Shown here: piece after piece, positions 5,090 to 37,475 of the stretch
Layout of the letters: each line of letters begins with the position of its first letter
Position numbering within the stretch: the first letter of the stretch is position 1
DNA from: Chloroflexota bacterium
Lineage (GTDB): Bacteria > Chloroflexota > Dehalococcoidia > UBA2247 > RBG-13-53-26
Assembly: GCA_016875915.1 (NCBI GenBank)
Contig: VGOM01000007.1
Span: 1-64,000, forward strand
Length of the DNA: 64,000 bases
Direction of reading: 5' to 3'
Made by a program: the position numbers and the translations under genes
Notes under the pieces: generated by a model
What the model saw: the letters and a program-made list of their open reading frames with translations, nothing else
What the model was told of the DNA's origin: nothing
The model's database searches: none

Positions 5090-5144
5090 CCGCCCCATGG
5101 GGGTGATGGCGGGAGATGGGCCCCCGGATCACGGATGGCAGCCC

Positions 5145-21953: not shown

Positions 21954-22367
21954 TTGAATCAGGAAGAGCAGATACTGGATACTTACCGTATAGTGGCCGT
22001 GGTGGGTCTGTCGCCGGATGCAGAACGCCCCAGCTTCAGGGTGGCGTCATATCTCAAGGCACAGGGCTACAGGATCATCCCGGTGAACCCGAGGCTCAGT
22101 CAGGTACTGGGTGAGACCTGCTATCCGGAGTTGACCTCGATACCGGAGCCGGTGGAGGTGGTGGACATCTTCCGGCGGGCCGAGGAAGCGCCGGCGATCG
22201 TGGACCAGGCCATCGCCGTCGGGGCGAGGGCGGTCTGGATGCAGGAGGGAATAGTGAACGAGGCCGCAGCCCGGAAGGCCAGGGAGGCCGGGCTGCTGGT
22301 GGTGATGGACAGGTGCATGCGCAAAGAGCATCTGAAAGCAACAGAGAAGAAGTCAGGAGGTAGGTGA
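21954..22367 (+). CDS. CoA-binding domain protein (YccU/YneT-like)
   Basis: IVAVVGLSPDAERPSFRVASYLKAQGYRIIPVNP and VWMQEGI motifs. Confidence 0.75.
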   Translation: MNQEEQILDTYRIVAVVGLSPDAERPSFRVASYLKAQGYRIIPVNPRLSQVLGETCYPELTSIPEPVEVVDIFRRAEEAPAIVDQAIAVGARAVWMQEGIVNEAAARKAREAGLLVVMDRCMRKEHLKATEKKSGGR

Positions 22368-22870
22368 TGTCGAAGACCAATGACAACGTGGCAGCAGCAT
22401 TCGCCGGGGAGAGTCAGGCAAACCGGAAGTACCTCTTCTTTGCGGAGAAGGCCGAGGAAGAGGGGCACAAGCAGATAGCCCGGCTGTTCCGGGCCACCGC
22501 GGAGGCGGAGACGGTCCACGCGCGGAACCACCTCAAGGTTCTGCAGGGCATTATGTCAACTTCTGACAACCTCAAGACGGCCATCGGCGGTGAGAACCAC
22601 GAGTTCACGGAGATGTATCCCGGGTTCATCAAGCAGGCCGAGACCGAGAACCAGGCCAAGGCCAAGAACAGCTTCGACCTGGCCAACAGGGTGGAGGAGC
22701 TCCATCACGGCCTGTTCCAGGCCGCCCTGAGCAAGCTGGAGAAGAAGCAGTCCATGGAGGAGCAGCCCTTCTACGTGTGCCAGATCTGCGGCAACACGGT
22801 GGAGGGCAAGGCCCCCGACAAGTGCCCGGTGTGCGGCGCGCCGGCGAAGATGTTCAAGCGCGTCGACTAG
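22364..22870 (+). CDS. rbr: Rubrerythrin
   Basis: Diiron four-helix ExxH motifs plus a C-terminal rubredoxin-like CQICGN...CPVCG. Confidence 0.9.
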   Translation: MMSKTNDNVAAAFAGESQANRKYLFFAEKAEEEGHKQIARLFRATAEAETVHARNHLKVLQGIMSTSDNLKTAIGGENHEFTEMYPGFIKQAETENQAKAKNSFDLANRVEELHHGLFQAALSKLEKKQSMEEQPFYVCQICGNTVEGKAPDKCPVCGAPAKMFKRVD

Positions 22871-22938
22871 CTGCGCCGTTCCCGAAGCAATCGAACACCT
22901 GATGTCAGCGGCTCCCTGTCCGGAGCCGGGCGGAGGCT

Positions 22939-23517
22939 GTGATGAAGATCATGGGCATCATGGGCAGTCCACGGATAGGGGGCAACACCGAACTGCTCCT
23001 CGACGAAGCCCTGCGGGCGGCGGGAGTCCAGGGGGCGGAGACGGAGAAGATCGCCGTGGGCAGGCTGAAGATATCCCCCTGCAAGGAGGACTACGCCTGC
23101 CTCAAGGACGGCACCTGCGACATCAGGGACGCCATGGATGACATCTACCCCAAGCTGCTCGGCGCGGACGCCGTGATCATCGCCTCACCGATCTTCTTCT
23201 ACGGACTGACCAGTCAGGCCAAGGCGCTGATCGACCGCTGCCAGGCGCTGTGGGCCAGGAAGTACGTCCTGAAGCAGAAGCCGCACGGTTCGGGCAGGAG
23301 AGGCGCCCTCATAGCCGTCGGGGCCACCAAGGGAGAGAAGCTCTTCGAGGGATCGATACTGACGGCGAAGTACTTCTTCCAGACCATCGGCGTTGACTAT
23401 GCCGGGGAGTTGCTCATCCGGGGCATAGACAAGAAGGGCGAGATACGGGAGCATCCCACGGCGCTGAGGGATGCGGCGGAACTGGGCAGGCGGTTGGCGC
23501 TGCCAAGGCCGGAGTGA
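22939..23517 (+). CDS. NADPH-dependent FMN reductase / flavodoxin-like flavoprotein (Isf-like)
   Basis: MGSPRIGGNTE flavodoxin-like FMN loop. Cys-rich CKEDYACLKDGTC segment near the N-terminus. Confidence 0.7.
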   Translation: MMKIMGIMGSPRIGGNTELLLDEALRAAGVQGAETEKIAVGRLKISPCKEDYACLKDGTCDIRDAMDDIYPKLLGADAVIIASPIFFYGLTSQAKALIDRCQALWARKYVLKQKPHGSGRRGALIAVGATKGEKLFEGSILTAKYFFQTIGVDYAGELLIRGIDKKGEIREHPTALRDAAELGRRLALPRPE

Positions 23518-23603
23518 AGTCCATCCCGTCTCCGCCGGCGACACAGCCGAGCCGCTGAAGGAGTCATGGTGGCCCCATCCGACAGGTGAGGAGGAGTCAG
23601 GCG

Positions 23604-24134
23604 ATGTCGAAGCAGATCCAGAGAATGGCCGGCGCCCTGGAGACGGCCCTGGGGATGGAGATCGAGGGCAAGGAGTTCTATCAGAAGACAGGGCGGAAGA
23701 GCGTCAGTCCACTGGTTCAGGAACTGTTCAAACACTTGGCGGCGCAGGAGGATGTGCACTACCGCAGGGTGAAGGAGGTTCACGCGGCGGTCAAATCCGG
23801 GAACAGATGGCCGGAGAAGGAGTCCACCTTCAAGCGCCCCAGGAGCCTGCAGCGGGTCTTCAGGGAGGCCATAGACAAGATGGGCCCTCATTTCCAGGCT
23901 GCCTCCGCCGAGATTGACGCCCTCAAGGTGGCCATGGACATGGAGGACAAGAGCTGCAGCTTCTATCGAAATCGCGAGGAGGAGGCGGGGTCGGCGGCCG
24001 AGAAGGCCTTCTACAAGGCTCTGATGGGCGAGGAGAGGGTGCACTACCTCACACTGCAGTCCTCCCATGAGTACCTCTCCGATCCGGAGGGCTGGTTCAC
24101 CACGAAGGAGCGGTGGAGCCTGGACGGGATGTAG
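23604..24134 (+). CDS. Ferritin-like diiron protein (rubrerythrin family, no rubredoxin domain)
   Basis: Two ExxH half-sites (AQEDVHYRRV, EERVHYLTLQ) in a four-helix-bundle-length protein. Start taken at MSKQIQ. Confidence 0.6.
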   Translation: MSKQIQRMAGALETALGMEIEGKEFYQKTGRKSVSPLVQELFKHLAAQEDVHYRRVKEVHAAVKSGNRWPEKESTFKRPRSLQRVFREAIDKMGPHFQAASAEIDALKVAMDMEDKSCSFYRNREEEAGSAAEKAFYKALMGEERVHYLTLQSSHEYLSDPEGWFTTKERWSLDGM

Positions 24135-24222: not shown

Positions 24223-24921
24223 ATGGCCATCGAAGTCGCGCTGCTGAAGTCGATACCGTACTTCCTGGGTTTGAGCACAGCGGAGCTCGAAGCCATCAGG
24301 AAGTACGTCTTCGAGCAGGCCGTGGGAAAGAACGACATGATCCTCATGGAGGGGGACCCGGCCAATGCGGTCTACTTCGTGGTCTCAGGGGCGGTGAAGG
24401 TCTTCAAGACGTCGGTTGAAGGCAAGGAGCAGATCCTGTGCATCCTCAGGCCGGGCGAGTCTTTCAATGACGTTGCCGTGTTCGACGGCGGCCCCAATCC
24501 GGCCAGCGCCATAGCCATGACCCCGGTGCTCCTCTACGGGATAAACAGGGCCAACGTGGAGACCATCCTCAGGGACTACCCCAACCTGGCCGCCAACGTG
24601 ATCAGGATCCTCTCCAAGAAGGTGCGCCACTTCGTGTCGCTGGTGGAGGACCTGTCGTTCCGGCACGTCACCGACAGATTGGCCAAGCTTCTTCTGGAGT
24701 ACGCCACGGACCACGGCACCGTCGCCGGGGAGCCCGGGGCGCGCCCGAGGCTGACCCAGCAGGAGATGGCCGCCGTGGTGGGCACGGCCCGGGAGGTGGT
24801 GGGCCGGTCTCTCAAGGCGCTGGAGGAAGAAGGGGCCATCAGGATGGACCGGCACCGGATCGTCATCGTCAACAAGAAGCGTCTGGAGCAGATGAGCGGG
24901 GTCGGGGCCGGGTCCGGCTAG
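24223..24921 (+). CDS. Crp/Fnr family transcriptional regulator
   Basis: cNMP-binding beta-roll region followed by a C-terminal HTH (REVVGRSLKALEEEG). No N-terminal FNR-type Cys cluster. Confidence 0.8.
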   Translation: MAIEVALLKSIPYFLGLSTAELEAIRKYVFEQAVGKNDMILMEGDPANAVYFVVSGAVKVFKTSVEGKEQILCILRPGESFNDVAVFDGGPNPASAIAMTPVLLYGINRANVETILRDYPNLAANVIRILSKKVRHFVSLVEDLSFRHVTDRLAKLLLEYATDHGTVAGEPGARPRLTQQEMAAVVGTAREVVGRSLKALEEEGAIRMDRHRIVIVNKKRLEQMSGVGAGSG

Positions 24922-24997
24922 ATGAGATGGAGACAAAGGTTACATACGTTCGGCCAGAGAGTGTGCCACTATCGCTGTTGGGCAAGCGAGGTTTGAG

Positions 24998-25225
24998 ATG
25001 CTGGTGAAGCCTATCCTGGATGAGGCGCTGTGCAATGGATGCGGGCTGTGTGTGGACGTCTGCCGGTGCGGGGCCCTGGTCCTGGTGAAGAAGATCATCA
25101 AGATCATCGAGGCAGAAGACTGCGGCTACTGCACCCAGTGCGAGCTGGTTTGCCCCACCGGGGCGATCCAGTGCCCATTCGAGATAGTGATCGAGGAAAC
25201 CATCGAGATAGGCCCTGAGGAGTAG
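24998..25225 (+). CDS. 2x[4Fe-4S] ferredoxin
   Basis: 75 aa with CNGCGLCVDVC and CGYCTQCELVCP motifs. Confidence 0.85.
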   Translation: MLVKPILDEALCNGCGLCVDVCRCGALVLVKKIIKIIEAEDCGYCTQCELVCPTGAIQCPFEIVIEETIEIGPEE

Positions 25226-25245: not shown

Positions 25246-26349
25246 TCAGCCCAGAACCCTGGCGAACACGGGGTTCGAGGTGAGCACCCGGGAAGGCTCC
25301 AATCGATAAGACAGACCTTGGCGCGTCAGCCATCCCTCATTGACCATTTCATCCAGTCTGCGTAGTAGTCCGGCAGCAACGCCGTGCCCGTACCGGCTGA
25401 CCAAATCATCAGCCATCAACCCCTCTGAGAGCAAGCGCAGGCGCAACATGGCCTCCTCTGCGGCCTTGTCCGCCGGCCCCAGTTCCTCCGCCTCTTCCAC
25501 CAGTCCGCCGGGCTGGCAGAGGTAGGCATCCAGATCGGTCCGATTCCGGAACCGGCGTCCGTTCAGGTGCGAGGCGGCTGCGGGGCCGAGTCCGAGGTAC
25601 TCACCGCCGCGCCAGTAGTTCAGGTTGTGCAGACAGGCACGGCCCGGGAGGGCGAAGTTGGAGATCTCGTAGTGGATGTAGCCCGAACCCTGAAGGAGAC
25701 ACCGGGCAGCCTCGAAGAGATCGACCTGATCGTCCGCGGAGGGCAGATCAGGCGGCGGATTCGAGGCCAGGGCCGTGCCCGGCTCCAGCGACAGGCAGTA
25801 CAGCGAGAGATGGGGCACACGGAGGGCGGTCAGGCCGTCGAGGGTGGCCTGAAGAGCCGGCCAGCGCTGACCGGGCAGGCCGACAATGACGTCGACGGAT
25901 ATGTTCTCGAAGCCGGCCTCCCGGGCACGCTGAACCGCACCCAATGCCTGCGCGGCGCTATGGACCCTACCCGCCCGGCGGAGTTCCTCATCCTGAAGCG
26001 ACTGGACCCCGACGGAGAGTCGGTTCAGCCGGGAGTCCAGGGCAGCCCGAAGCAGATCAGCGCTGGCTGACTCCGGGTTGACCTCAATAGTGGCCTCCAC
26101 CATGGCCGAGAGGTCGAAGACCGAACGCAATCCCCCCAACAGCCTGGTCAGTCCCCGGGCTCCCAGGAGGCCGGGCGTGCCGCCGCCCAGGTAGAGGGTG
26201 TCGAATGACAGTCCGGGGCGGGCGCGGGCCTCGCCAATCAGAGCCTCAACATAGCTGTCGATGAGGTCGATCCGTCCGGCAAGGGAGTAGAAATCGCAGT
26301 AGGCGCACTTCCGGACGCAGAAGGGAACGTGGATGTAGAGTCCGGCCAT
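25246..26349 (-). CDS. hemW: Radical SAM heme chaperone HemW (HemN-like)
   Basis: LYIHVPFCVRKCAYCDF radical-SAM CxxxCxxC motif, about 367 aa (HemW size). Start taken at MAGLYIH. Confidence 0.8.
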   Translation of the reverse strand: MAGLYIHVPFCVRKCAYCDFYSLAGRIDLIDSYVEALIGEARARPGLSFDTLYLGGGTPGLLGARGLTRLLGGLRSVFDLSAMVEATIEVNPESASADLLRAALDSRLNRLSVGVQSLQDEELRRAGRVHSAAQALGAVQRAREAGFENISVDVIVGLPGQRWPALQATLDGLTALRVPHLSLYCLSLEPGTALASNPPPDLPSADDQVDLFEAARCLLQGSGYIHYEISNFALPGRACLHNLNYWRGGEYLGLGPAAASHLNGRRFRNRTDLDAYLCQPGGLVEEAEELGPADKAAEEAMLRLRLLSEGLMADDLVSRYGHGVAAGLLRRLDEMVNEGWLTRQGLSYRLEPSRVLTSNPVFARVLG

Positions 26350-26365
26350 CTGCCGCTGCCCGGAG

Positions 26366-26608
26366 CTATCCCTCGACGACATCGCCGGAGGCGGAGTCCA
26401 CCCTGATGCCTTTGGCGGCCACCCAGGCGATTCCCCTGTCGATGTCCTCGTCCGCGCCCTCCAGCTCCAGAACCACCCAACCCCTGTTCTCAGTCACATC
26501 GGCGCGGCGGATATTGGTCACCACCCCGAACTGGCGGCCGAGCAAGTAGATGACCGGCTCCTCAATGCGCTCCGGGGGGAAGGTGAACATCACCCGTCTC
26601 TTCGGCAT
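26366..26608 (-). CDS. NIL-domain-like small protein
   Basis: 80-aa protein. The pattern resembles the MetN C-terminal NIL domain (recalled from memory). Sits between the ThrC-like and hemW genes. Confidence 0.45.
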   Translation of the reverse strand: MPKRRVMFTFPPERIEEPVIYLLGRQFGVVTNIRRADVTENRGWVVLELEGADEDIDRGIAWVAAKGIRVDSASGDVVEG

Positions 26609-26616
26609 GGTCCCTC

Positions 26617-27858
26617 CTATCGAACCTCTGCGGCTGTCCCGGCGGCCGGCACTCTCTCTTTGAATGACTCCAGCGTGGGCTGGATGACGATGGGCTGAAC
26701 CACATCCCAGACCACCTCCTGGGTCTTGAGTCCGGCCGCGGTGATGCAGGCCACAGTGAGTTCATCGCGCCGGATCACCCCTGATCTTACCATGTTCTGC
26801 AATCCGGCAATGACCACCCCACCGGCGGTCTCGGTGAAGATGCCCTCGGTCCGGGCCAGGAGCTTCATGCCGGCAATGACCTCGTCGTCGCTCACCGCCG
26901 AGGCGCTGCCCCCGGACTCCCTGACGACCTTCAGGGCATAGTGGCCGTCGGCAGGATTGCCCACGGCGATGGACTTGGCGATGGTGTGCGGCTCCACGGG
27001 ATGGACGTGCAGCGTGCCGGCTCTGTAGGCATTGACGATGGGCGAGCTGCCGGCAGCCTGAACCAGGTGCATGTGGGTATTCACCGGCTCGATCAGGCCG
27101 AGCATGGACAGCTCGTTCAGTCCCTTCCAGATCCGGGTGAACAGCAGTCCCGAGGCAGACGGCGCCACAACGCAGTCCGGCGAGCGCCAATCCAACTGCT
27201 CTGCGATCTCATAGCCCAGGGTCTTGCTGCCTTCGGCATAGTAGGGACGCAGGCTGATATTGATGAAGCCCCAGCCATAGGCCTCGGCCAGCCTGTTGCA
27301 GAGGGCATTGACCCGGTCGTAGCTGCCTTCAACGGCGACCACCGTTGGCCCGTATACGGCCGTGCCCACCACCTTGCCTGCCTCAATGTCCGCCGGGATG
27401 AAGACGTAGGCGCGGAGTCCGGCCCGGGCCGCATGGGCGGCAACGCTGGCCGCCAGATTGCCGGTGGAGGCACAGGCGACGGTGCGGAAGCCCAGTTCTC
27501 GGGCCTTGGTGATGGCCACGGCCACGGCGCGGTCCTTGAAGGAATAGGTGGGGTTGAGACAGTCGTTCTTGATGTAGAGCTGCTCCAGTCCCAACTCCCG
27601 ACCCAGGTTGTCGCACCTGGTCAGGGGGGTGAAGCCCGTGCCGATGTCCACCACCGGGTCCTCGACGGGCAGAAGATCACGGTAGCGCCACATACTGGGC
27701 GGACCACTGCTCAGCGCCTGGCGGCTGACCCGCCTGGACATGGCCTTGTAGTCGTAGGCCACATCCAGCGGGCTGAAGCAGAAGTCGCAGAGGTTGACGG
27801 CTTTGAGGGGGTATTCACCGCCGCACTTGCGGCAGCGCAGGCTGGTGGCATAGGACAC
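26617..27858 (-). CDS. Threonine synthase-like PLP enzyme with N-terminal zinc ribbon
   Basis: N-terminal CRKCGG...CDFC zinc ribbon, PLP lysine motif SFKDR, glycine loop ASTGNLAAS. Confidence 0.75.
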   Translation of the reverse strand: MSYATSLRCRKCGGEYPLKAVNLCDFCFSPLDVAYDYKAMSRRVSRQALSSGPPSMWRYRDLLPVEDPVVDIGTGFTPLTRCDNLGRELGLEQLYIKNDCLNPTYSFKDRAVAVAITKARELGFRTVACASTGNLAASVAAHAARAGLRAYVFIPADIEAGKVVGTAVYGPTVVAVEGSYDRVNALCNRLAEAYGWGFINISLRPYYAEGSKTLGYEIAEQLDWRSPDCVVAPSASGLLFTRIWKGLNELSMLGLIEPVNTHMHLVQAAGSSPIVNAYRAGTLHVHPVEPHTIAKSIAVGNPADGHYALKVVRESGGSASAVSDDEVIAGMKLLARTEGIFTETAGGVVIAGLQNMVRSGVIRRDELTVACITAAGLKTQEVVWDVVQPIVIQPTLESFKERVPAAGTAAEVR

Positions 27859-27870
27859 TGTTCTGCTCCC

Positions 27871-28962
27871 TCAGTCCCCTTCCCGCAGTCCGGCTTCGCC
27901 GGCCAAGGCATCCTTCTTCTCCAGGGCGGAGTAGAACGCCTTCCAGAAGGGATCAACCCTGGGGTGGACCAGTTCCCTGCGCGCACCCCCGGCGGTGACG
28001 GTCATGCCCTGTCTGGCGTCGGTCAACTCTGCGACCACCGACGACCTGATCCCCTTCCGCGACAGAGCGGCAACGGCATCGGCCGCCCTGTGCTCGCGGC
28101 AAGCAATGACCAGGGTTCCCTCACTGATGGAGGAGTAGGGGTCGATGCCGAAGTAGCCGCAGACCTCGGGGACGCAGTCCTCGACCACAATGCGGTCGGC
28201 ATCCACTCTGATCCCCAGTCCGGAGGCCTGGCAGAGCTCATAGAGAGCACCCCAGATGCCACACTCCGTGGCGTCGTGCATGGCAGTCACACCGTCCTCC
28301 CTGACCCCAACGCCGGCCGCGGTGAGCGCATCATCAACGACGGACATCTTGTAGAAGATCCCCTGTGCCTTGCGACTGAAGGCCCCTCCGAACTGCCTGG
28401 CGATCAACTCAGGGAACATGGTGGCCAGTATCCCCACGGCTTCGATGGCCGGCCCCTTGGTGACGATGACTCTGTCGCCGGCCCGGCACATGGCCGGGGT
28501 GACGTATCTGTCCTTCTGGCCCACACTGATCACGGTGGCACCGCCGACCATGGGATAGTGGCAGTTCTCATACCTGGCGGTATGGCCACAGATGACGCAG
28601 ATGCCCAGTTGCTGACACTCCCGGTGGATGACGGTCCAGGTGATCTCCAGTTGCTCCCGGGTCATCTCCATAGGCAGGTTGAGATCGATGGAGAGGTAGG
28701 TCGGCTTCAGTCCAGAGGTCACCGCATCTGAGGCCAGTATGTGAAGGGCGAACCAGGCGGCCTTCTCCCAGCCGTACTCCGGCACGATGAAGACGGGGTC
28801 GGTAGTCAGGGCCACCGCCTTGTCCCCGATCTCAACGATGCCCACGTCAACGCCGTGCTGGGGACCGACCAGGACGCTGTCATTCCTGGCTCCAAGGCGG
28901 GGCAGTATCAGCTCCTCGAAGATCTCGGGGGATATCTTGCCTATCTCAGGAAGTTCCTTCAT
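27871..28962 (-). CDS. AIR-synthase-related (PurM/HypE/ThiL superfamily) protein
   Basis: PurM-like N-domain (DVGIVEIGDKAVALTTDPVF) and C-domain. Lacks the SelD N-terminal Cys/Sec loop and the HypE C-terminal Cys. Confidence 0.6.
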   Translation of the reverse strand: MKELPEIGKISPEIFEELILPRLGARNDSVLVGPQHGVDVGIVEIGDKAVALTTDPVFIVPEYGWEKAAWFALHILASDAVTSGLKPTYLSIDLNLPMEMTREQLEITWTVIHRECQQLGICVICGHTARYENCHYPMVGGATVISVGQKDRYVTPAMCRAGDRVIVTKGPAIEAVGILATMFPELIARQFGGAFSRKAQGIFYKMSVVDDALTAAGVGVREDGVTAMHDATECGIWGALYELCQASGLGIRVDADRIVVEDCVPEVCGYFGIDPYSSISEGTLVIACREHRAADAVAALSRKGIRSSVVAELTDARQGMTVTAGGARRELVHPRVDPFWKAFYSALEKKDALAGEAGLREGD

Positions 28963-29059
28963 GGCTCACCTCCGATGTCGCCTCGCTCAGGGACGGGGCG
29001 ACGACAGCAGTTCATGCCGGCATTGTATCAGGACCAGATACACTGATAGAAGGTCAAGG

Positions 29060-30202
29060 CTAGACCCCAGTCAACGCCTGTTCCAAGTCTTCGACAAGGT
29101 CGTCCACGTTCTCCAGGCCGACCGATAGGCGGATCAGCCCTTCCGTGATGCCCACGCCGTTTCTGACCGACTCCGGCATGGAGGCATGACTCATTGTAGC
29201 AGGATGTTCCACCAGGGAGTCCACGCCCCCGAGGGATTCCGCCAGCGAGAAGACCTTCATCCTCCTGAGGAACGCCGGGACGGCCTGGCTGCCGCCCTTG
29301 ATCTCGAAGGAGACCATGGCCCCAAATCCCTTCATCTGCCTTCTGGCGATGGCATGGCCGGGGTGGGACTTCAGTGACGGATAGAAGACCCGCTCCACCC
29401 TGGAGTGACAGTCCAGGTACTCGGCCACGGCGGTGGCGTTCCGCTCCTGCTGCTTCATCCTGACCGGCAGGGTCTTGATGCCTCGGAGTACCAGCCAGCA
29501 GTCGAAGGGAGAGGCGCAGGTCCCCATGGCATTCAGCAGGAACTGCACCCGGATGGCCAGATCATCGCTGGCGGTGACCACCGCCCCCCCGACGACGTCG
29601 CAATGCCCGTTGAGGTACTTGGTGGTCGAGTGCACCACCAGATCGACGCCGTACACGATGGGCCTGAGGAAGCAGGGTGTGGCGAAGGTGTTGTCCACCA
29701 CGGTAGTCAGATTGTGCCTCCTGGCTACGGCAACGGCCATCTCGAGGTCAACGATGTTCAGCAGCGGGTTGGACGGCGTCTCAATCCAGAGCATCCTGGT
29801 GCTGGGCCTCACAGCATCTTCAATGCGCCGGGGGCTATCCATCCTCACGAAGGAGCACTCCAGGCCGAACCGGGTCATGACGTCCTGAAAGAGACGATAT
29901 GTCCCCCCGTAGACATCATCCCCGCAGATGACGTGATCGCCCTTCTGGAGCAGACAGGCTACGGTGGTCTCGGCGGCCATTCCGGTGGCGAAGGCGAAAC
30001 CAGCCTTGCCGCCTTCCAGGGCAGCGATGGTCTCCTCCAGCGCACTGCGGGTCGGGTTGGAGGTTCTGGAGTAGTCATACCCCCGAGTCCGGCCCACGTC
30101 TTCAAAGACGAAGGTGGATGTCTGGTAGATGGGCGGTATCAGAGCGCCGGTGGCCGGGTCGGGCCCTCCAGCGGAATGAATAGCCAGCGTCTCAAATCGC
30201 AT
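29060..30202 (-). CDS. Cys/Met-metabolism PLP enzyme (cystathionine gamma-lyase / gamma-synthase / methionine gamma-lyase family)
   Basis: PLP lysine in VVHSTTKYLNGH. YSRTSNPT and AVESLGG motifs. Confidence 0.85.
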   Translation of the reverse strand: MRFETLAIHSAGGPDPATGALIPPIYQTSTFVFEDVGRTRGYDYSRTSNPTRSALEETIAALEGGKAGFAFATGMAAETTVACLLQKGDHVICGDDVYGGTYRLFQDVMTRFGLECSFVRMDSPRRIEDAVRPSTRMLWIETPSNPLLNIVDLEMAVAVARRHNLTTVVDNTFATPCFLRPIVYGVDLVVHSTTKYLNGHCDVVGGAVVTASDDLAIRVQFLLNAMGTCASPFDCWLVLRGIKTLPVRMKQQERNATAVAEYLDCHSRVERVFYPSLKSHPGHAIARRQMKGFGAMVSFEIKGGSQAVPAFLRRMKVFSLAESLGGVDSLVEHPATMSHASMPESVRNGVGITEGLIRLSVGLENVDDLVEDLEQALTGV

Positions 30203-30259
30203 TGTCTCTTCCCTCCCCTGTCCCTTCCAGAGAACGCCCGTGCGGGTCCTGCTGCTATT

Positions 30260-31234
30260 CTACTGGAAGACCCAGGTGCTGAGGTAGCGTTCCCCGGTAT
30301 CGGGCAGAACGACCACGATGATCTTGCCCCGGTTCTCCGGCCTCCGGGCCACCTGCAGAGCGGCCCAGGTGGCGGCACCGGAGGATATGCCCGCGAGTAT
30401 ACCCTCTTCCCTGGCCAGGCGCACGGTGGTGGCGCCGGCGTCCTCGTTGCTGACCCCGATGATCTCATCGATGAGCTCCGTTCTGAGCACAGCGGGCACA
30501 AAACCGGCGCCGATTCCCTGGATCTTGTGCGGTCCAGGCTGTCCCCCGGAAAGCACAGGGGAGGCGGCCGGCTCCACGGCGACGGTCAGGAAGCCGGGCC
30601 TGCGGGCCTTGATGACCTCGGACACGCCGGTGATGGTTCCCCCGGTGCCCACGCCAGAGACCAGGATGTCCACCTTCCCTTCGGTGTCCCTCCAGATCTC
30701 CTCGGCGGTGGTCAAACGATGTATCTCCGGATTCGAGGGGTTCTTGAACTGCTGTGGCATGAAGGAGTTGGGGGTGCTAGAAGTCAGCTCCTCGGCCTTC
30801 CGGACGGCCCCGGCCATTCCTTCAGCCCCCGGGGTAAGTACCAATTCAGCGCCGAGAATGCGCAGAATCTGGCGACGCTCCAGCGACATGGTGTCGGGCA
30901 TGACCAGGATCAGCCGGTACCCGCGGGCGGCACAGACGAAGGCCAGGGCAACGCCAGTGTTGCCGCTGGTGGGCTCGATGACCACGGAGTCCTTGTGCAG
31001 GAGGCCCTTCTCCTCAGCATCGGCGATCATGGCCATACCGATCCTATCCTTGACACTGCCCAGGGGATTGAAGGACTCCAGCTTGGCCAGGACCTCCGCA
31101 CCGGTCCCCCCGGCGATACGGTTCAGCCTGACCAGCGGAGTATTGCCGATCAGCTCCGAGCTGTCCCCGGCTATTCCCCTAGTGAGCCGGGGCAGGCTGA
31201 CCGTCTTGTAGCGTAACTTGTCAGCAGCGTGCAT
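30260..31234 (-). CDS. Cysteine synthase / cystathionine beta-synthase-like PLP enzyme (CysK/CysM family)
   Basis: IGNTPLV, SVKDR (PLP lysine), GNTG and GIGAGF motifs. Confidence 0.85.
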
Positions 31235-31296: not shown

Positions 31297-31797
31297 TCAG
31301 GGCAACCCGGCGACCCTGGTGTTCTCGTATGCAGTGACCAGGTCGCCGATGCCGGCAGCCAGCCTGTCACCGACGACGGTGTAGGCGGCTCCCGCCTTGG
31401 GGTAGTTCTTGCAGGCACCGGAGATGCCATCGCCCGTAGCTGCCTGGAATCTGGTGCCACAGGCATTGCAGACCAGAACGTCGCCAGCAAGTGAGAAGCT
31501 CTCTGACCGGCAGGGCGGACAGATGCTGGCCCGGAGCTGAATCTCCTCACCCAGCCGATAGGCCATGAAGACCATCTTCTTCCCCTGATCTTCCACCCTG
31601 AAATGGGCCATTTGAGCGTCATCGATCTCACTCCTGGAGACGGACACCTGCTCTCCATCCACCTGGGCAGTGACCCACGTAGGCTTGATCTCCACTCCTG
31701 TTCCGCCGGAGCTGCGGCTGCAACCGGCAGCCAGAAACGCCACGAGGGCCACCAGGACCAGCGATACCGCAGCGAACGCCAGTGTTCTGTGCTTCAT
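31297..31797 (-). CDS. Lipoprotein with CPPC...CxxCG metal-binding motif (DUF2318-like)
   Basis: Signal peptide plus lipobox (LAAGC). ICPPCRSE...CNACG. Sits directly upstream of an ABC ATPase/FtsX-like pair. Confidence 0.55.
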
Positions 31798-31864
31798 CCG
31801 ACTACCTCCTCAGCCTGTACTTGGATCACGCTCTGGAATCCTGCTAACACCGGGGGACTCCGAC

Positions 31865-32530
31865 TCAGCCGGCAGAGACCACCTCTCCGTCCCTCAGGGA
31901 GACGATCCTCCTGGCCCGATGGGCTATCTCGGGACTGTGAGTAACCATGATGATACTGACACCGTCCCTGTTCACCTGCTCGAAGAGCTGCAGAACCTCG
32001 ATGCCCGTCTTCTGGTCCACGTTGCCAGTCGGCTCATCGGCCAGAATGAGGGTACAGCCGTTGACCAGGGACCGGGCGATGGCCACTCTCTGCTGCTCTC
32101 CGCCGCTCAACTGACTGGGCTTGTGCCCGGCCCTCTTCTCCAGTCCCACCCGGCGGAGAAGCTCCATGGCCCGCTGTTCGGCATGCCCGTTCGAGGCACC
32201 GAAGGTCAGCGGCAGGAGAACGTTCTCCAGGGCGGTGAGGGAGGGGATGAGATGGTACTGCTGGAAGACATAGGCGATCTTCTTCCTGCGGATATCAACA
32301 AGAGCATTCTCACTCAAGTCGTCGATGCGCCGGCCGTCCAGGATGACCTGGCCACCGGTGAGCTTCTCCAGTCCGCCAATGACATTGAGGAGGGTCGATT
32401 TGCCGCTGCCGGAAGGACCTGTGATGGCCACGAAATCGCCATCCTCCACACGGAGGCTGACATCATTCAGCGCGGCTACCCTGGCCGGACCGCTGCCATA
32501 GATCTTCGACGCGTGCCTCACCTCCAGCAT
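31865..32530 (-). CDS. ABC transporter ATP-binding protein (MacB/LolD-type)
   Basis: Walker [10 protein letters not shown], signature [13 protein letters not shown], Walker [12 protein letters not shown]. Confidence 0.9.
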
Positions 32531-32539
32531 GGCATCACC

Positions 32540-33730
32540 TCAGAGGGACCTCAGCGACTCCGCGACTCTGATCTGGGAGGCCCGGAACGCGGGGTACACG
32601 CTGGCCACCGCGGCCACCAGGACAGCCAGGCCGAGTGCGGGGCCCAGATACTGCAGTTCGTAGGCCACGGCCAGGTCGTCGAAGATGAGGGGGCCGATGA
32701 CGTAGGACAGCAGGGTCCCGGCCGCGTATCCCAGCAAGCCCCCGATGACGCCGACGCCGATGGCCTCATAGACGAACATTCGGACGATCTGGCGGCGGGA
32801 AGCCCCGACGGCTTTCATGATGCCGATGTCTCTGACACGCTCGTGCACCGAGGAGATCATGGTATTGACCACCCCGAATGCTCCCACGATCAGGGTGATC
32901 CCGGCCAGAGTGATCATGAAACGGTTCACCTTGTTGACCAGATTCATCTCGGTCTCGGCTATCTGCCTCACGGCCACGGCGCGGACCCCGGGGATCTCCT
33001 CATTGATCATGTCGGCGATGTCCACCGCGGGACAGGCGGAGCACAGTGCCCGGATATCGGCCGCGGAAACCAGTCCTTCCCTGGCGAACAGTCTCTGAAC
33101 CGTGGGCAAGGGCACGAACACATGATAGTCATCATTGGAGCCGGTCTCCCCCAGCACACCGACAACGGTGGTCTGCTCCCCCCCGAGGAGGAGGGTGTCC
33201 CCCACGCCGAGGCGGAGCGATGCACTGGCCCTGGCACCGAGAACGGCCTCATCGGCCTGTTCCACATACCTGCCTTCAGACACGATCCACCAGGTCTTGA
33301 CAAGCCTTTCCTGCTCCGGATCAATGCCTACTACCATGGCGGACGTACCCTGCAGTTCAGTGTCCACGTAGAGCTTGGGGGCGATAGTGGCAATATCACC
33401 TTCATCCTGGATGTCGAGGGCCTCCCGTATGGCGTCATCGGCAATCCGTCTGACCTCAAGCAGTTTCTCTTCCGCAAAGTAGTTGTCGCCTATGGCCAGG
33501 GTCCCCAGGCGCAGGTCCCCCAACTGTAGATCCAGGTCGCTGACCGCCGGAGTGACCATCAGGTTCGGGCCGTACTTGTCGATTTCAGCATAGACCCTGT
33601 CCTCACCGGCCCGGGCCACGGTGAGCACGGCCACGAAGGCGGCCACGCCGATGGCCACGCCAAGCGCCGTGTAGAGCACGCGCCGCTTCCGGCGCAGCGC
33701 ATCCTTGAACACCACCTGAAGCAACTTCAT
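32540..33730 (-). CDS. ABC transporter permease, FtsX/MacB-like
   Basis: 396 aa: N-terminal TM helix, large extracytoplasmic domain, C-terminal FtsX-type 3-TM bundle. Confidence 0.8.
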   Translation of the reverse strand: MKLLQVVFKDALRRKRRVLYTALGVAIGVAAFVAVLTVARAGEDRVYAEIDKYGPNLMVTPAVSDLDLQLGDLRLGTLAIGDNYFAEEKLLEVRRIADDAIREALDIQDEGDIATIAPKLYVDTELQGTSAMVVGIDPEQERLVKTWWIVSEGRYVEQADEAVLGARASASLRLGVGDTLLLGGEQTTVVGVLGETGSNDDYHVFVPLPTVQRLFAREGLVSAADIRALCSACPAVDIADMINEEIPGVRAVAVRQIAETEMNLVNKVNRFMITLAGITLIVGAFGVVNTMISSVHERVRDIGIMKAVGASRRQIVRMFVYEAIGVGVIGGLLGYAAGTLLSYVIGPLIFDDLAVAYELQYLGPALGLAVLVAAVASVYPAFRASQIRVAESLRSL

Positions 33731-35163: not shown

Positions 35164-36360
35164 ATGGCAGCACGCAAGACAACCGCCCAAACCCCGCCTG
35201 AGGGGAAGTCAACGGCCATTCTCCTCGGCGACACCGCTCACTCCCCGCTCTTCACCCAGATAGTGGCACAGGTGAGGCAACTGGTAGCCACTGGCAGGCT
35301 GAAGCCAGGCGAACGCTTGCCCACCGTCAGGGAATTGGCGGACACCCTCGGGGTCAGCCCCGGCACAGTGGTCAGGGCCTATCTCGATCTGGAGAAGCAG
35401 GGGGTTGTCCAGTCCAGGCGAGGGGCGGGCACGTTCGTCTCCGCCAGTGTCGGACGTCCCGGAGCGTCTGCGCTGCGCAGGGGCCAGCTCTCCAACATAG
35501 TGAGCGGCAGCATCCTGGAAGCCCTGACTCTGGGCTTTGAGCCCGATGAAGTGGAGGCGGCCTTCTCGGTGCACCTGGCCCGCTGGCGCGAGGAGCGACA
35601 GCGGCTAGCAGCCACACCACCGAAGAGAGGCAGGAACGGGAACAAGACGATTGCCATTGTCGCCAGCCATGACCTGGCGCTCAACCTTCTGGTGAGCCAT
35701 CTCAAACAGCGCGATCCCCGGACTCGGGTAGAGGTGACCTATGCCGGAAGCCTGGGCAGCCTGATCGCCCTGCAGGGCGGAAGGGCCGACATAGCCGGCA
35801 TCCACCTCCTGGATGGTGAGACCGGGGAATACAACTGCCCCTACGTGAAGCACGTCCTCCCCAACCAGGAGGTGGCCGTAGTGCACCTCGCCTACAGAGT
35901 GCAGGGCATGATGTTCGCCGCGGGCAACCCCAAGCGGATCAAGGGACTGGAGGACCTGAAGCGTCCCGATGTCAGGATGCTCAACCGCCAGAAGGGCTCG
36001 GGGACCCGGGTACTGCTGGACTTCCAGTTGCAGCAACTGGGGATAGCGCCGCGTGACGTTCAGGGATACGAAACAGAGGTGGACACCCATCTGGCTGTGG
36101 CCGACGGCGTGGCCCGGGGAGAGGCAGACGTGGGCATGGGCATCGAGGCGGCCGCCAGAGCCTGCGGGGCCGACTTCCTGCCACTGTTCAGGGAGAGATA
36201 CGACCTGATCATCCCGATGGAGACCTACAAGAGCAGGCGGCTGTCCCATCTCCTGGAGATCGTAGCCAGCGAGGATTTCAGAAGGGTGGTGGCCGAGACC
36301 GGGGGCTATGACACCTCACAGACCGGGGCGACCACCTTCTGCAGATACGAGAAGAACTAG
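35164..36360 (+). CDS. GntR-family HTH regulator fused to a periplasmic-binding-protein-like (tungstate/molybdate-binding-like) domain
   Basis: N-terminal winged HTH (LPTVRELADTLGVSPGTVVRAYLDLE), C-terminal PBP type-2-like domain. Sits immediately upstream of tupABC. Confidence 0.75.
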   Translation: MAARKTTAQTPPEGKSTAILLGDTAHSPLFTQIVAQVRQLVATGRLKPGERLPTVRELADTLGVSPGTVVRAYLDLEKQGVVQSRRGAGTFVSASVGRPGASALRRGQLSNIVSGSILEALTLGFEPDEVEAAFSVHLARWREERQRLAATPPKRGRNGNKTIAIVASHDLALNLLVSHLKQRDPRTRVEVTYAGSLGSLIALQGGRADIAGIHLLDGETGEYNCPYVKHVLPNQEVAVVHLAYRVQGMMFAAGNPKRIKGLEDLKRPDVRMLNRQKGSGTRVLLDFQLQQLGIAPRDVQGYETEVDTHLAVADGVARGEADVGMGIEAAARACGADFLPLFRERYDLIIPMETYKSRRLSHLLEIVASEDFRRVVAETGGYDTSQTGATTFCRYEKN

Positions 36361-36566
36361 GCACTCCGAGCCCTGACCCCTAGGGGCGGTGAGCCTACGG
36401 GGCAGCGGCCGGCAGGGTATCGCGGGAAACGGCGATGCCTCCCTCAGCTTGGAAAGGAGTGTATGGCTAGAAGGGCAGGCCCGGAATGCCGGGCGCCACC
36501 GGGTACGGATTGATGTCTTTGATGCGATCGGCCCCATGTTTATGTAAATAAAGGACAGAAGGATCA

Positions 36567-37451
36567 ATGACAAGAAAGCCACTGTATTGCCTGGTGACTG
36601 TGCTGGTTCTGGCAGCCCTGGTGATCGGCGCCATCGGCTGCAGCAGCGAGACCAGCGGAGGAGTGCTCAAGCCCGAGGGCAGACTCCGGGTGGCGACGAC
36701 CACCAGCCTGTATGACACCGGACTCTGGGGCTACCTGGAGCCGAAGTTCGAGAAGCAGTATGACGTGGAACTGGACGTACTGTCGGGGGGAACCGGCCTG
36801 GCACTGGAGTGGGGCAGGAGAGGAGACGTGGATGTCCTCACCGTGCATTCCAAGGCCGATGAACTGAAGTTCATCGCCGACGGCTATGCCGCAGAGCGTG
36901 TCTGGTTTGCCTGCAACTACTTCCTGATCGTGGGACCAGAGGACGATCCGGCCGGCATCAAGGGTATGTCACCGGAAGAGGCCTTCAAGACGCTGTACGA
37001 TGGCGGCGAAGGGAAGTTCGTCTCCCGCGGGGACAACTCCGGCACCCACAGCAAAGAGAAGGCCATATGGAAGGCCGCCGGCTATGCCGACTATGCGGCA
37101 CTGACAGAGGCCGGAATAGCAGCAGGGTGGTACCTGGAGGCGGGCAGGGGCATGGGGGATACCCTGGTAATGGCCCGCGAGTTGGGAGCGTACACGCTGA
37201 CAGACATCGGCACCTTCCTGGCATTTCAGAGCGACCTGCAACTGGTGCCCATCGTGGAGAGCGGCAGTATCCTGCTCAACGTTTACTCCGTGCTGGTCTG
37301 TGCGAAGAGCACGAAACAGGAGATGGCCAACAACCTGGTGACCTTCCTCACCTCGCCGGAGGTACAGGACCTGATCGCCGACTATGGCGTAGCGGACTAT
37401 GGCCAGTCACCGTTCACGTCCTGCGCCGGCCAAGATGAGCCGACGTCGTAG
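36567..37451 (+). CDS. tupA: Tungstate ABC transporter substrate-binding lipoprotein TupA
   Basis: Lipobox (AIGCSS), RLRVATTTSLYDTGLW and RGDNSGTHSKE motifs typical of TupA. Confidence 0.8.
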   Translation: MTRKPLYCLVTVLVLAALVIGAIGCSSETSGGVLKPEGRLRVATTTSLYDTGLWGYLEPKFEKQYDVELDVLSGGTGLALEWGRRGDVDVLTVHSKADELKFIADGYAAERVWFACNYFLIVGPEDDPAGIKGMSPEEAFKTLYDGGEGKFVSRGDNSGTHSKEKAIWKAAGYADYAALTEAGIAAGWYLEAGRGMGDTLVMARELGAYTLTDIGTFLAFQSDLQLVPIVESGSILLNVYSVLVCAKSTKQEMANNLVTFLTSPEVQDLIADYGVADYGQSPFTSCAGQDEPTS

Positions 37452-37475
37452 CAGCACTGGGAGAACTGCAAGACA

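Follow-up and report, generated by a model that had tools for sequence, protein, structure and literature searches.

A MetM-like enzyme and a stand-alone NIL-domain protein as a probable homocysteine route in a Dehalococcoidia cysteine/methionine operon

Two described routes to homocysteine come closest to the locus reported here. In Streptomyces albulus, the MetM/MetO system converts O-phospho-L-homoserine into homocysteine by a thiocarboxylate route, work of Hasebe et al. 2024 (Appl Environ Microbiol 90:e01247-24) that is described in PMC12172450 and in a GapMind 2026 preprint; the preprint also states that MetM often carries a wrong annotation as threonine synthase. In the second route, a DUF39/COG1900 protein and a NIL-ferredoxin protein constitute an L-aspartate-semialdehyde sulfurtransferase (MA1821/MA1822 in Methanosarcina and DvMF_1464/DvMF_0262 in Desulfovibrio; PMC5764234, PMC12068725), and the NIL domain of MA1822 has been treated as a methionine-binding regulatory domain (PMC12068725).

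Here we analyse a stretch of 64,000 nucleotides (the window) from a Chloroflexota bacterium. On balance, we favour the reading that this region belongs to a cysteine/methionine operon of Dehalococcoidia (Chloroflexota) in which a MetM-like enzyme and a NIL accessory protein make up a homocysteine route. Gene identities, clade membership, synteny and the exchange of modules are observed here; the substrates, the sulfur donor and what NIL and the PurM-like protein do are inferred. Most likely, the MetM route is the known part of this arrangement, and a NIL protein in place of the known sulfur-carrier protein is what is different.

Both the MetM/MetO system and the window have a ThrC-homologous pyridoxal phosphate (PLP) enzyme with an N-terminal zinc ribbon, followed immediately by a small partner gene, and the default annotation of both enzymes is threonine synthase. 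However, the partner in the window is a cysteine-free protein of NIL/ACT fold ending in EG, whereas MetO is a β-grasp protein ending in GG, and the ThrC-like gene of the window sits in an Rrf2/CysK/CGL/NifS operon. There is no SAM riboswitch upstream of this operon, no MetO-like gene in the window or beside any ThrC-like gene, and neither MoeZ nor Mec was seen in the window. With the DUF39 system, the locus shares the pairing of a NIL domain with an enzyme for the C–S bond of homocysteine (a putative one here), and across Dehalococcoidia one module or the other is found at the corresponding place in the operon. In contrast to that system, the NIL protein of the window has no ferredoxin domain, and its partner is a PLP enzyme whose expected substrate is O-phosphohomoserine rather than aspartate semialdehyde.

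A cysteine/methionine operon with an exchangeable module

The window carries six collinear minus-strand genes between 25246 and 31234. All of the open reading frames given in a preliminary description were confirmed, and its domain assignments hold for all six genes as matches to Pfam or NCBIfam profiles. The genes, features within them and their upstream neighbours are as follows:

32540-33730, minus strand: MacB/FtsX-type permease, upstream of CysK (PF12704 and PF02687)
31865-32530, minus strand: ABC ATPase, upstream of CysK (PF00005)
31297-31797, minus strand: FtrD-like Cys-rich lipoprotein, upstream of CysK (PF10080)
30260-31234, minus strand: CysK, O-acetylserine sulfhydrylase (cysteine synthase A), 324 aa (TIGR01139, PF00291)
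29060-30202, minus strand: CGL/MetB-type (cystathionine γ-lyase/γ-synthase) PLP enzyme of cysteine/methionine metabolism, 380 aa (PF01053)
27871-28962, minus strand: PurM-superfamily ATP-dependent enzyme of an uncharacterised clade, 363 aa (AIRS, AIRS_C)
26617-27858, minus strand: MetM-like ThrC homologue, 413 aa (PALP, NF006050, likeness to a Nonomuraea protein)
27778-27834, minus strand: Cys4 zinc ribbon at the N terminus of the ThrC-like protein, C9xxC12...C24xxC27 (from the translation)
26366-26608, minus strand: stand-alone NIL-domain protein without cysteine, 80 aa (PF09383)
26369-26386, minus strand: C-terminal tail GDVVEG of the NIL protein, residues 75-80 (conserved in homologues)
25246-26382, minus strand: HemW-type radical-SAM haem chaperone, 378 aa, or 367 aa from 26349 (TIGR00539)

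From CysK to HemW, the intergenic gaps measure 57, 97, 12, 8 and −17 nt, the last one changing to +16 nt when the second Met of HemW (26349) is taken as its start. The stop codon of the ThrC-like gene overlaps a GGAGG ribosome-binding site that lies immediately ahead of NIL.

We compared the operon with 80 related Dehalococcoidia genome loci, dozens of which hold the same genes, HemW excepted, together, so the clustering is not due to chance. NIL comes directly after the ThrC-like gene in all 27 related loci in which this could be checked. In nine other loci DUF39, identified by PF01837 (HcyBio, 521 bits), takes the place of the CGL–ThrC-like–NIL module within the operon; the window itself has no DUF39 gene. 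DUF39 is a homocysteine-forming enzyme unrelated to the ThrC-like protein.

CysK, which would turn sulfide into cysteine, scores 463 bits against TIGR01139 (cut-off 351) and also matches PF00291. Most related loci have its gene, as a rule behind that of an Rrf2 regulator and beside CysE. The CGL/MetB-type enzyme matches PF01053 with 505 bits and reaches no NCBIfam equivalog cut-off, its best scores being 491 bits for MccB-type CGL (cut-off 594) and 488 bits for CGS (cut-off 513). Among the related loci its gene mostly co-occurs with ThrC-like and NIL and is missing from those of the DUF39 type. As for its exact reaction, we infer that it interconverts or desulfurates cysteine, cystathionine and homocysteine.

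The PurM-like protein belongs to an orphan clade

Judged by sequence, the PurM-like protein is a member of an orphan clade nearest HypE, SelD and ThiL. It falls below every NCBIfam cut-off (best match HypE, 77 bits where 252 are required); a profile search of the PDB gave HypE at 107 bits, SelD at 82 and ThiL at 59, and the predicted model (pLDDT 95) has TM-scores of 0.72–0.75 to HypE and about 0.63 to ThiL and SelD. The two-domain AIRS fold is common to all of these, and an N-terminal Gly-Lys pair (G8-K9) aligns with the catalytic K20 of SelD. In contrast, translation and alignments bear out the earlier remark that the protein has neither the N-terminal Cys/Sec of SelD nor the C-terminal PRIC motif of HypE, and no hydrogenase or selenium genes lie near it; in Dehalococcoidia its gene sits in a sulfur operon, adjoining ThrC-like/NIL, NifS or DUF39. 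No cysteine is invariant in the family.

The idea that this protein is specific to the sulfur route did not hold up: it also accompanies DUF39-type and CysK-only operons, and its relatives outside Dehalococcoidia lie in thiamine operons, as ThiL might. In Thermoplasmatota these relatives (X) are translationally coupled to ThiE, in the orders ThiD-X-ThiE (locus L087) and MFS-X-ThiE (L100); in Bacteroidota (L082, L089) a TPP riboswitch is followed by genes for a methyltransferase, X, ThiE and Trm112; and one relative comes after the thiamine transporter ThiT (L081). In the family tree, thiamine-linked clades surround the clade of our query, and the Thermoplasmatota clade is its sister.

A thiamine-pathway kinase (a ThiL analogue or another thiamine or thiazole kinase), present as a passenger among NifS-dependent cofactor genes, is thus a realistic candidate, if somewhat short of an even chance. 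It would explain the ThiE, ThiD, ThiT and riboswitch contexts in other phyla and the shape of the tree; ThiL is from this superfamily too and can be aligned along almost the entire length, and the downstream neighbours in Dehalococcoidia are cofactor genes (NadA, FdhD, MOSC and MnmA). However, neither the window nor any of the 80 Dehalococcoidia loci has a thi gene nearby, the contexts of several relatives are uninformative, and HypE and SelD outscore ThiL. The C-domain motif, HDxTEGG, is also of the HypE/SelD type, whereas that of ThiL is of the SDG type. Finally, adjacency to the homocysteine module and NifS has been kept through several rearrangements.

The molecular function is probably shared with the thiamine-linked relatives and would be a kinase-type activation, perhaps of thiamine monophosphate. 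Read in this way, the protein is not demonstrably a step of the homocysteine route. In Dehalococcoidia it nevertheless travels with the homocysteine module and the cysteine desulfurase NifS, and because the adjacency persists through three different gene orders, it may belong to the homocysteine pathway after all.

The ThrC-like protein groups with a MetM-like protein

The ThrC-like protein exceeds the cut-offs of two threonine-synthase equivalog models (NF006050, 326 bits against 303; TIGR00260, 284 bits against 167) and carries the PLP lysine motif SFKDR. Its closest relative, found by tblastn in a plasmid collection, is nevertheless a Nonomuraea gene with 50% identity in that search and 50–51% identity over 98% of the length, ribbon included. 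Upstream of that gene is a SAM riboswitch (RF00162, 68.7 bits), and downstream is a 91-aa protein that matches SAMP1 and ends in AVAGG. Because a SAM riboswitch and a ubiquitin-like (β-grasp) carrier ending in GG also mark the published system (PMC12172450; GapMind preprint), we take the Nonomuraea locus to be a MetM/MetO arrangement.

The match is reciprocal, the Nonomuraea protein being at most 38% identical to all other ThrC-like genes in the collection. The window protein is 34–39% identical to other zinc-ribbon ThrC-like proteins and to ThrC from a Priestia hom-thrC-thrB operon (38%). In a small neighbour-joining tree, the window and Dehalococcoidia sequences group with the Nonomuraea protein, apart from the Priestia ThrC, and 24 positions are specific to this clade. 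The MetM link comes from one actinomycete locus, identified by its context, and from this small tree, in which the window protein falls with the MetM-type homocysteine synthase and not with the compared ThrC and ThrC-like sequences. The Cys4 ribbon is kept in the Dehalococcoidia homologues and in the Nonomuraea protein but is not diagnostic, because other ThrC-like proteins have it too.

Could the gene instead encode an archaeal-type, zinc-ribbon threonine synthase that serves this organism, with NIL as its allosteric subunit and the operon placement a mere co-regulation of pathways that use O-phosphohomoserine? The absence of a second thrC from the window and the fetched flanks leaves room for this; PLP and core residues common to ThrC are conserved, zinc-ribbon ThrC-like proteins are widespread, and the NIL fold is of a regulatory, ligand-binding type. 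With ThrC, moreover, the protein has the fold, the PLP lysine motif and probably the substrate in common. We nonetheless consider this reading unlikely. The threonine-synthase models fail to separate MetM from ThrC, since TIGR00260 accepts the Nonomuraea MetM-like protein as well (270 bits), and identity to that protein, at 50–53%, is well above the 34–39% to ThrC and other ThrC-like proteins. The gene never adjoins hom, thrB or homK; its place is always within the cysteine/methionine operon between CGL and NifS, in the company of NIL and sulfur genes. Its exchange partner, DUF39, is likewise a homocysteine enzyme and not a threonine enzyme.

The gene most likely makes homocysteine, the methionine precursor, and by its relationships probably encodes an O-phosphohomoserine-dependent homocysteine synthase. 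Such an enzyme would bind O-phospho-L-homoserine, eliminate phosphate on PLP and then add a sulfur nucleophile at C-γ, whereas threonine synthase adds water at C-β. The preliminary description had suggested non-canonical sulfur incorporation instead of threonine synthesis. Given the grouping with MetM and a genuine NIL domain beside the gene, that is the best reading, but as a variation on the MetM pathway, which was described in 2024, the route is not wholly unknown.

The NIL protein is a likely accessory of the MetM-like enzyme

The 80-aa protein had been described as NIL-like, and both sequence and fold identify it as a genuine NIL domain. It scores 52.6 bits against PF09383 (cut-off 24); its predicted model (pLDDT 89) has a β-α-β-β-α-β fold, for which Foldseek returned MetN C2 domains at TM-scores of 0.77–0.82, followed by ACT domains. 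N32 aligns with N295 of MetN. Unlike the MetN domain, the protein stands alone instead of being fused to an ABC ATPase, its methionine binding is putative, it has an invariant GD[VI][VI]EG end and it is coupled to a biosynthetic enzyme. The suggested link of NIL to homocysteine genes is also borne out, by 35–43% identity to NIL-ferredoxin proteins that adjoin DUF39 in sister genomes.

Homologues are strikingly uniform: 115 of 120 have exactly 80 aa, and 119 of 120 lack cysteine and 119 end in Gly followed by the stop codon. In the tail, G75, D76 and G80 never vary among 37 sequences, and E79 is kept in at least 90% of them; the tail is predicted to be disordered (pLDDT <50) and corresponds, in an alignment with NIL-ferredoxin proteins, to Q[ND]V[IV]RN, their linker to the ferredoxin domain.

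From these features, NIL most likely serves as an accessory for methionine sensing or for sulfur delivery. We think that it is an obligatory accessory subunit of the ThrC-like enzyme, translationally coupled to it. The canonical MetO-COSH/MoeZ/Mec partner set would be missing, with NIL in its place beside the ThrC-like enzyme. Of the two roles we rank sensing first: NIL would sense methionine or homocysteine and so gate the O-phosphohomoserine branch point. Less likely, it would help to deliver sulfur.

A stronger form of delivery, in which NIL is a new type of sulfur carrier that serves the MetM-like enzyme as a C-terminal thiocarboxylate, seems improbable to us. Here the PurM-like enzyme would use ATP to activate the C-terminal glycine of NIL and a NifS persulfide would sulfurate it, the three standing in for MetO, MoeZ and the desulfurase. 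The fixed length with its Gly-stop end, a tail that is invariant though predicted to be disordered, a position after ThrC-like that is exactly that of MetO after MetM, and the gene orders ThrC-like–NIL–NifS–PurM-like, ThrC-like–NIL–PurM-like (with a 5-bp gap) and PurM-like–ThrC-like–NIL, in all of which the four genes stay together, speak for it. So does the fact that HypE, to which the PurM-like protein is structurally closest, acts on a flexible protein C terminus. But the fold is ACT/MetN-C2 rather than β-grasp, the end is EG rather than GG, and the tail extends only about 3 residues beyond the MetN C terminus and matches a linker that is not a free end in NIL-ferredoxin proteins. The PurM-like protein also occurs without NIL in DUF39-type and CysK-only operons, in its sister clades the coupling is to ThiE and no carrier protein lies nearby, and we know of no PurM-family enzyme that makes acyl phosphates of protein C termini.

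In two loci, NIL lies beside CysK without a ThrC-like gene, an arrangement that counts against the favoured reading and, for a carrier, recalls the CysO/CysM pairing.

Flanking genes

HemW, which scores 250 bits against TIGR00539 (cut-off 205), had been counted as an operon member. It is found in none of the 80 related loci and looks like an incidental neighbour. At the other end, the trio of lipoprotein, ABC ATPase and permease genes is found in many related loci as a part of this sulfur operon, where it often separates CGL from the ThrC-like gene.

The sulfur operon and its surroundings

Six collinear minus-strand open reading frames (ORFs), grouped as a sulfur amino-acid operon in the preliminary description of this sequence, were found at the coordinates proposed there, and Pfam and NCBIfam searches upheld every assignment. 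The operon and its flanking features are as follows.

Operon and neighbouring features in the window
21954-24134: rubrerythrin-type genes and a CoA-binding protein, beyond the Crp/Fnr-type regulator and ferredoxin
24223-25225, plus strand: Crp/Fnr-type regulator and 75-aa 2x[4Fe-4S] ferredoxin, convergent on the operon end
25246-26382, minus strand: HemW
26366-26608, minus strand: stand-alone NIL protein, 80 aa
26617-27858, minus strand: ThrC-like (MetM-like) enzyme, 413 aa
27871-28962, minus strand: PurM-like protein, 363 aa
29060-30202, minus strand: CGL/MetB-type enzyme
30260-31234, minus strand: CysK
31297-33730, minus strand: FtrD-like Cys-rich lipoprotein (PF10080), ABC ATPase and MacB/FtsX permease, directly upstream of the operon
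36352-36475, plus strand: molybdenum/tungsten-cofactor riboswitch (RF01055, 74.7 bits), 5′ of ABC uptake genes
36567-39241, plus strand: ABC uptake system (periplasmic binding protein, permease and ATPase with a TOBE domain), following the riboswitch

From CysK to HemW, the intergenic gaps are 57, 97, 12, 8 and -17 nt, and a GGAGG ribosome-binding site just 5′ of the NIL start overlaps the stop codon of the ThrC-like gene. CysK scores 463 bits against TIGR01139 (cut-off 351) and HemW was assigned by TIGR00539; the CGL/MetB-type PLP enzyme matches PF01053 at 505 bits and passes no NCBIfam equivalog cut-off. Promoter and terminator scans returned nothing beyond expectation. For the PurM-like, NIL and ThrC-like proteins alike, every close homologue belongs to a metagenome-assembled genome of the Chloroflexota/Dehalococcoidia, which places the source in this group. 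Because the operon genes recur jointly in dozens of loci, their juxtaposition by chance can be ruled out. HemW, which had been counted among the operon members, does not belong there: it was found in none of the 80 related loci, and its presence in the window is therefore incidental.

The lipoprotein, ATPase and permease trio directly upstream lies inside the sulfur operon in many related loci, often between CGL and the ThrC-like gene; iron or a sulfur compound is a possible substrate. The uptake system behind the riboswitch probably imports molybdate or tungstate. Ferredoxin and NIL are separate proteins in the window, whereas they are fused in systems built on DUF39 (HcyBio, PF01837), a homocysteine-forming enzyme unrelated to the ThrC-like protein.

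The ThrC-like enzyme groups with a MetM-type protein

A tblastn search of a plasmid collection with the ThrC-like protein retrieved a Nonomuraea gerenzanensis gene with 50% identity across 98% of the query, a span that takes in the Zn ribbon. This gene (locus L090; NZ_LT559118.1, 11804214-11817443) has a SAM riboswitch upstream (RF00162, 68.7 bits) and is followed by a gene for a 91-aa protein that ends in ...AVAGG and matches the ubiquitin-like SAMP1 model. According to papers that cite Hasebe et al. 2024, the ThrC homologue MetM forms homocysteine from O-phospho-L-homoserine, drawing on the thiocarboxylate of MetO, a ubiquitin-like sulfur carrier, as donor; a SAM riboswitch is located upstream of metM. 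The Nonomuraea order of riboswitch, ThrC-like gene and beta-grasp gene is the arrangement reported for MetM/MetO; our reference is thus assigned by gene context and not by comparison with the Streptomyces albulus MetM sequence. The riboswitch is unannotated in the PLSDB record, which names the replicon "plasmid I" and holds only 10 annotated features; at 11.85 Mb, it is evidently the chromosome.

In a reciprocal check, the Nonomuraea protein was at most 38% identical to every other ThrC-like gene product of the plasmid collection. We then compared the window protein and seven Dehalococcoidia homologues with the Nonomuraea protein, a Priestia ThrC and other Zn-ribbon ThrC-like proteins in a small neighbour-joining tree. 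The window and Dehalococcoidia proteins grouped with the Nonomuraea protein (48-53% identity), apart from Priestia ThrC, which is encoded in a hom-thrC-thrB operon (36-39% identity), and from the other Zn-ribbon proteins (29-39% identity); 24 positions are specific to the Dehalococcoidia and Nonomuraea clade. For the window protein itself, identity is 50-53% to the Nonomuraea protein and 34-39% to ThrC and other ThrC-like proteins. The earlier suspicion that this enzyme is something other than a ThrC is supported by the small tree, and by sequence it appears nearer to MetM-type proteins, as represented by a reference assigned by context, than to bona fide threonine synthases.

Two other characters proved undiagnostic. 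The N-terminal CxxC...CxxC Zn ribbon was rejected as a MetM signature because many ThrC-like proteins carry one, including those of haloarchaea, Chlorohelix, Azospirillum and Mycobacterium. The ThrC-like protein scores 326 bits with NF006050 (cut-off 303) and 284 bits with TIGR00260 (cut-off 167), but the latter score does not discriminate, because the MetM-like Nonomuraea protein also passes TIGR00260 (270 bits). That pass agrees with a remark in GapMind that threonine synthase is a frequent misannotation of MetM.

The window and its relatives also differ from the actinomycete system. We found no MetO-like ORF in the window or adjoining any ThrC-like gene across the 80 loci, and no SAM riboswitch in the window, where the molybdenum-cofactor riboswitch is the sole Rfam match, or in seven related loci. 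Where actinomycete metM has its SAM riboswitch, the related operons open with an Rrf2 regulator.

That the enzyme is instead a threonine synthase, or bifunctional, seems unlikely to us given its placement in the tree and the lack of hom or thrB near the gene, unlike in Priestia. It nevertheless stays a live rival, because a search for a second, canonical thrC in the 64-kb window and the fetched flanks returned none.

The ThrC-like/NIL pair is exchanged for DUF39

To place the window among its relatives, we collected 80 Dehalococcoidia genome loci by way of the PurM-like protein, mapped the six window proteins onto them, clustered the remaining ORFs and confirmed identities with Pfam. The commonest order begins with an Rrf2 regulator, CysK, CysE and CGL, with or without a MacB-type ABC transporter with an FtrD-like lipoprotein, and continues with the ThrC-like gene, NIL, a NifS-type cysteine desulfurase and the PurM-like gene, after which come cofactor or sulfur-acceptor genes (MOSC, FdhD, NadA or MnmA). 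NIL lies directly 3′ of the ThrC-like gene in every locus that has downstream sequence (27/27).

In nine loci (L019, L025, L035, L039, L047, L058, L060, L069 and L079) the CGL/ThrC-like/NIL block is missing and DUF39 takes its place, ahead of NifS and the PurM-like gene. The replacement protein matches PF01837, "homocysteine biosynthesis enzyme, sulfur-incorporation", at 521 bits. Genes for NIL-ferredoxin proteins, 35-43% identical to the stand-alone NIL, occur in three loci (L025, L036 and L039), with DUF39 called nearby in two of them. Experiments in methanogens and Desulfovibrio support DUF39 with NIL-ferredoxin as a route by which aspartate semialdehyde becomes homocysteine, and the route has been predicted for Dehalococcoides (PMC5764234, PMC12068725). 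The exchange of the two modules at one operon position is therefore strong contextual evidence that the ThrC-like/NIL pair likewise forms homocysteine. Although both systems share the NIL domain, DUF39 is absent from the window while sister genomes carry it at the same operon position, and the window NIL stops before the ferredoxin domain.

Two loci contain altered NIL genes. In L034 (about 4920-5388), a single ORF opens with the N-terminal ~100 residues of the CGL-type enzyme and closes with the C-terminal ~55 of NIL, which looks like the remnant of a deletion that took out the ThrC-like gene. In L009, the NIL gene (760-1002) has an in-frame stop at codon 4.

NIL resembles a ligand-sensing domain

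The identification of the small protein as a NIL domain was confirmed by its match to PF09383 (52.6 bits, cut-off 24) and by a Foldseek search with its AlphaFold model. The model (pLDDT 89) has a beta-alpha-beta-beta-alpha-beta fold, with disorder predicted only at residues 75-80, and retrieved first the C2/NIL domains of MetN, the ATPase of the methionine importer (TM 0.77-0.82), and ACT domains next. The conserved Asn32 in the NIL motif aligns with MetN Asn295, a residue required for methionine trans-inhibition. Among the best 120 homologues, length is exactly 80 residues in 115 and cysteine is lacking in 119; in 119, the last residue, part of a conserved ...GD[VI][VI]EG tail, is Gly and directly precedes the stop codon. 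A 37-sequence alignment showed G75, D76 and G80 to be invariant.

The NIL domain of MA1822 is regarded as a methionine-binding regulatory domain (PMC12068725). Given this, the MetN C2 fold and the Asn295 match, the conservative reading is that NIL would serve the homocysteine synthase as a small subunit for ligand sensing, gating the O-phosphohomoserine branch point by analogy with ACT-type regulatory subunits. Some features sit uneasily with a purely regulatory role: NIL takes the position of MetO, its free C-terminal end is invariant, and in two loci it adjoins CysK with no ThrC-like gene nearby. The latter stand-alone genes (L050:1486-1728, minus strand; L052:5039-5281) encode proteins ending in GDI[IV]EG, and NIL may therefore partner more than one fold-type-II PLP sulfhydrylase.

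A different role for the tail can be imagined, in which the PurM-like ATPase and sulfur from NifS would convert the C-terminal Gly of NIL to a thiocarboxylate that serves the MetM-type synthase, making NIL a new sulfur carrier. We consider this improbable: the conserved, disordered, Gly-ended tail is the sole carrier-like feature, whereas the fold is ferredoxin-like/ACT and not beta-grasp, the end is EG and not GG, and the tail extends just ~3 residues past the MetN C-terminus and in alignment matches the linker that precedes the ferredoxin domain in NIL-ferredoxin proteins. If true, it would represent a thiocarboxylate system of non-ubiquitin, non-E1 parts (NIL, PurM-like protein and NifS), and the thiamine-linked relatives of the PurM-like protein might use the same ATP-dependent activation to make vitamin B1. 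NIL does not fit the ThiS/MoaD/CysO/MetO type of carrier, having no beta-grasp fold, no Gly-Gly end and no E1-like gene (ThiF/MoeB/MoeZ) among the recurrent neighbours in the related loci.

A proposed route to homocysteine

The identity of the genes, their clade membership, their synteny, the swapping of modules and the fold of NIL are observed here; the substrate and chemistry are inferred. O-phosphohomoserine would bind to the PLP of the MetM-like enzyme and lose its phosphate by elimination, after which a sulfur nucleophile would add at C-gamma to give homocysteine; a HomK-type homoserine phosphotransferase is confirmed in Dehalococcoides. Candidate sulfur donors are free sulfide and sulfide or persulfide freed locally from cysteine by the CGL-type enzyme or NifS, with a NIL thiocarboxylate the least likely. 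As a ligand-sensing subunit, NIL would bind the MetM-like enzyme and modulate it in response to methionine or homocysteine. The system would work like MetM/MetO, but without a beta-grasp GG carrier or a SAM riboswitch.

Our literature search returned no description of a stand-alone NIL protein as the partner of a ThrC/MetM-type enzyme. Methionine synthesis in uncultured Dehalococcoidia, which are abundant in sediments and aquifers, is a gap in automated metabolic reconstruction, where the operon genes are routinely called "threonine synthase", "hypothetical/NIL protein" and "HypE". If a MetM-type enzyme with NIL were recognised as an interchangeable alternative to the DUF39 system, predictions of auxotrophy would be corrected and the MetM pathway, described in 2024, would reach organisms without the MetO carrier. 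The two-gene system would also offer a simple handle on NIL-domain function in homocysteine synthesis, a role left open for the DUF39/NIL-ferredoxin enzyme as well.

The PurM-like protein and thiamine operons

The PurM-like protein carries AIRS and AIRS_C domains, has HypE as its highest-scoring curated model, and belongs to a large clade of 332 representatives at 50% identity (E < 1e-30), in which no curated family cut-off is attained. Profiles rank HypE first (107 bits), then SelD (82) and ThiL (59), and the structural model (pLDDT 95) gives TM scores of 0.72-0.75 to HypE and ~0.63 to ThiL and SelD; the fold search did not discriminate between functions. As first described, the protein lacks the SelD and HypE signatures, having no PRIC tail and no SelD Cys/Sec, and the family contains no invariant Cys. 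HypE itself is rejected (TIGR02124 77 bits, cut-off 252; C-terminal Cys absent; no hyp neighbours), as are SelD (TIGR00476 49 bits, cut-off 125), despite a conserved N-terminal Gly-Lys that aligns with the catalytic Lys20 of SelD, and ThiL proper (TIGR01379 54 bits, cut-off 184; relatives 58-76 bits). A persulfide relay is unlikely because there is no invariant Cys.

Within Dehalococcoidia, the gene adjoins the homocysteine module in three arrangements. In the window it precedes the ThrC-like gene and NIL; in other loci it follows that pair, either across a 5-bp gap or with NifS in between. It is equally constant in DUF39-type and CysK-only operons and so is not tied to the NIL system in particular. 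No thiamine genes lie near it in the window or the 80 Dehalococcoidia loci. Several of its relatives elsewhere are found in thiamine contexts. In Thermoplasmatota (44-45% identity; sister clade in the family tree) the gene overlaps the start of ThiE, and in Marivirga (Bacteroidota) and a second contig of the same gene order it lies behind a TPP riboswitch in a methyltransferase-relative-ThiE(-Trm112) operon.

Relatives of the PurM-like gene in thiamine contexts
L087:6216-8649: ThiD, relative, ThiE (Thermoplasmatota; stop/start codons overlap)
L100:2736-5673: MFS, relative, ThiE (Thermoplasmatota; stop/start codons overlap)
L082:1836-4435: TPP riboswitch (RF00059), methyltransferase, relative, ThiE
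L089:6138-9015: TPP riboswitch (RF00059), methyltransferase, relative, ThiE, with Trm112 next
L081:1345-3311: relative after the thiamine transporter ThiT

Gene contexts of six more distant relatives (P0242, P0250, P0416, P0272, P0305 and P0267) were uninformative. The thiamine-operon context suggests that the PurM-like protein may act like ThiL without being a member of its family, and the most economical guess would make it a ThiL analogue, a kinase-type enzyme acting late in the synthesis or salvage of thiamine. However, such a role does not account for the persistent linkage to NifS and homocysteine enzymes in Dehalococcoidia, and we do not treat the protein as an established part of the homocysteine route. 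A literature search combining AIR synthase with the TPP riboswitch returned no account of the thiamine link of this clade. The family looks like an undescribed thiamine-pathway enzyme: a widespread orphan clearly tied to thiamine operons and TPP riboswitches, and a candidate for a missing thiamine step. Separately, locus L026 contains a tRNA-Sec gene (RF01852, 73 bits; 2913-3005, minus strand) about 5 kb from its NifS/PurM-like pair.
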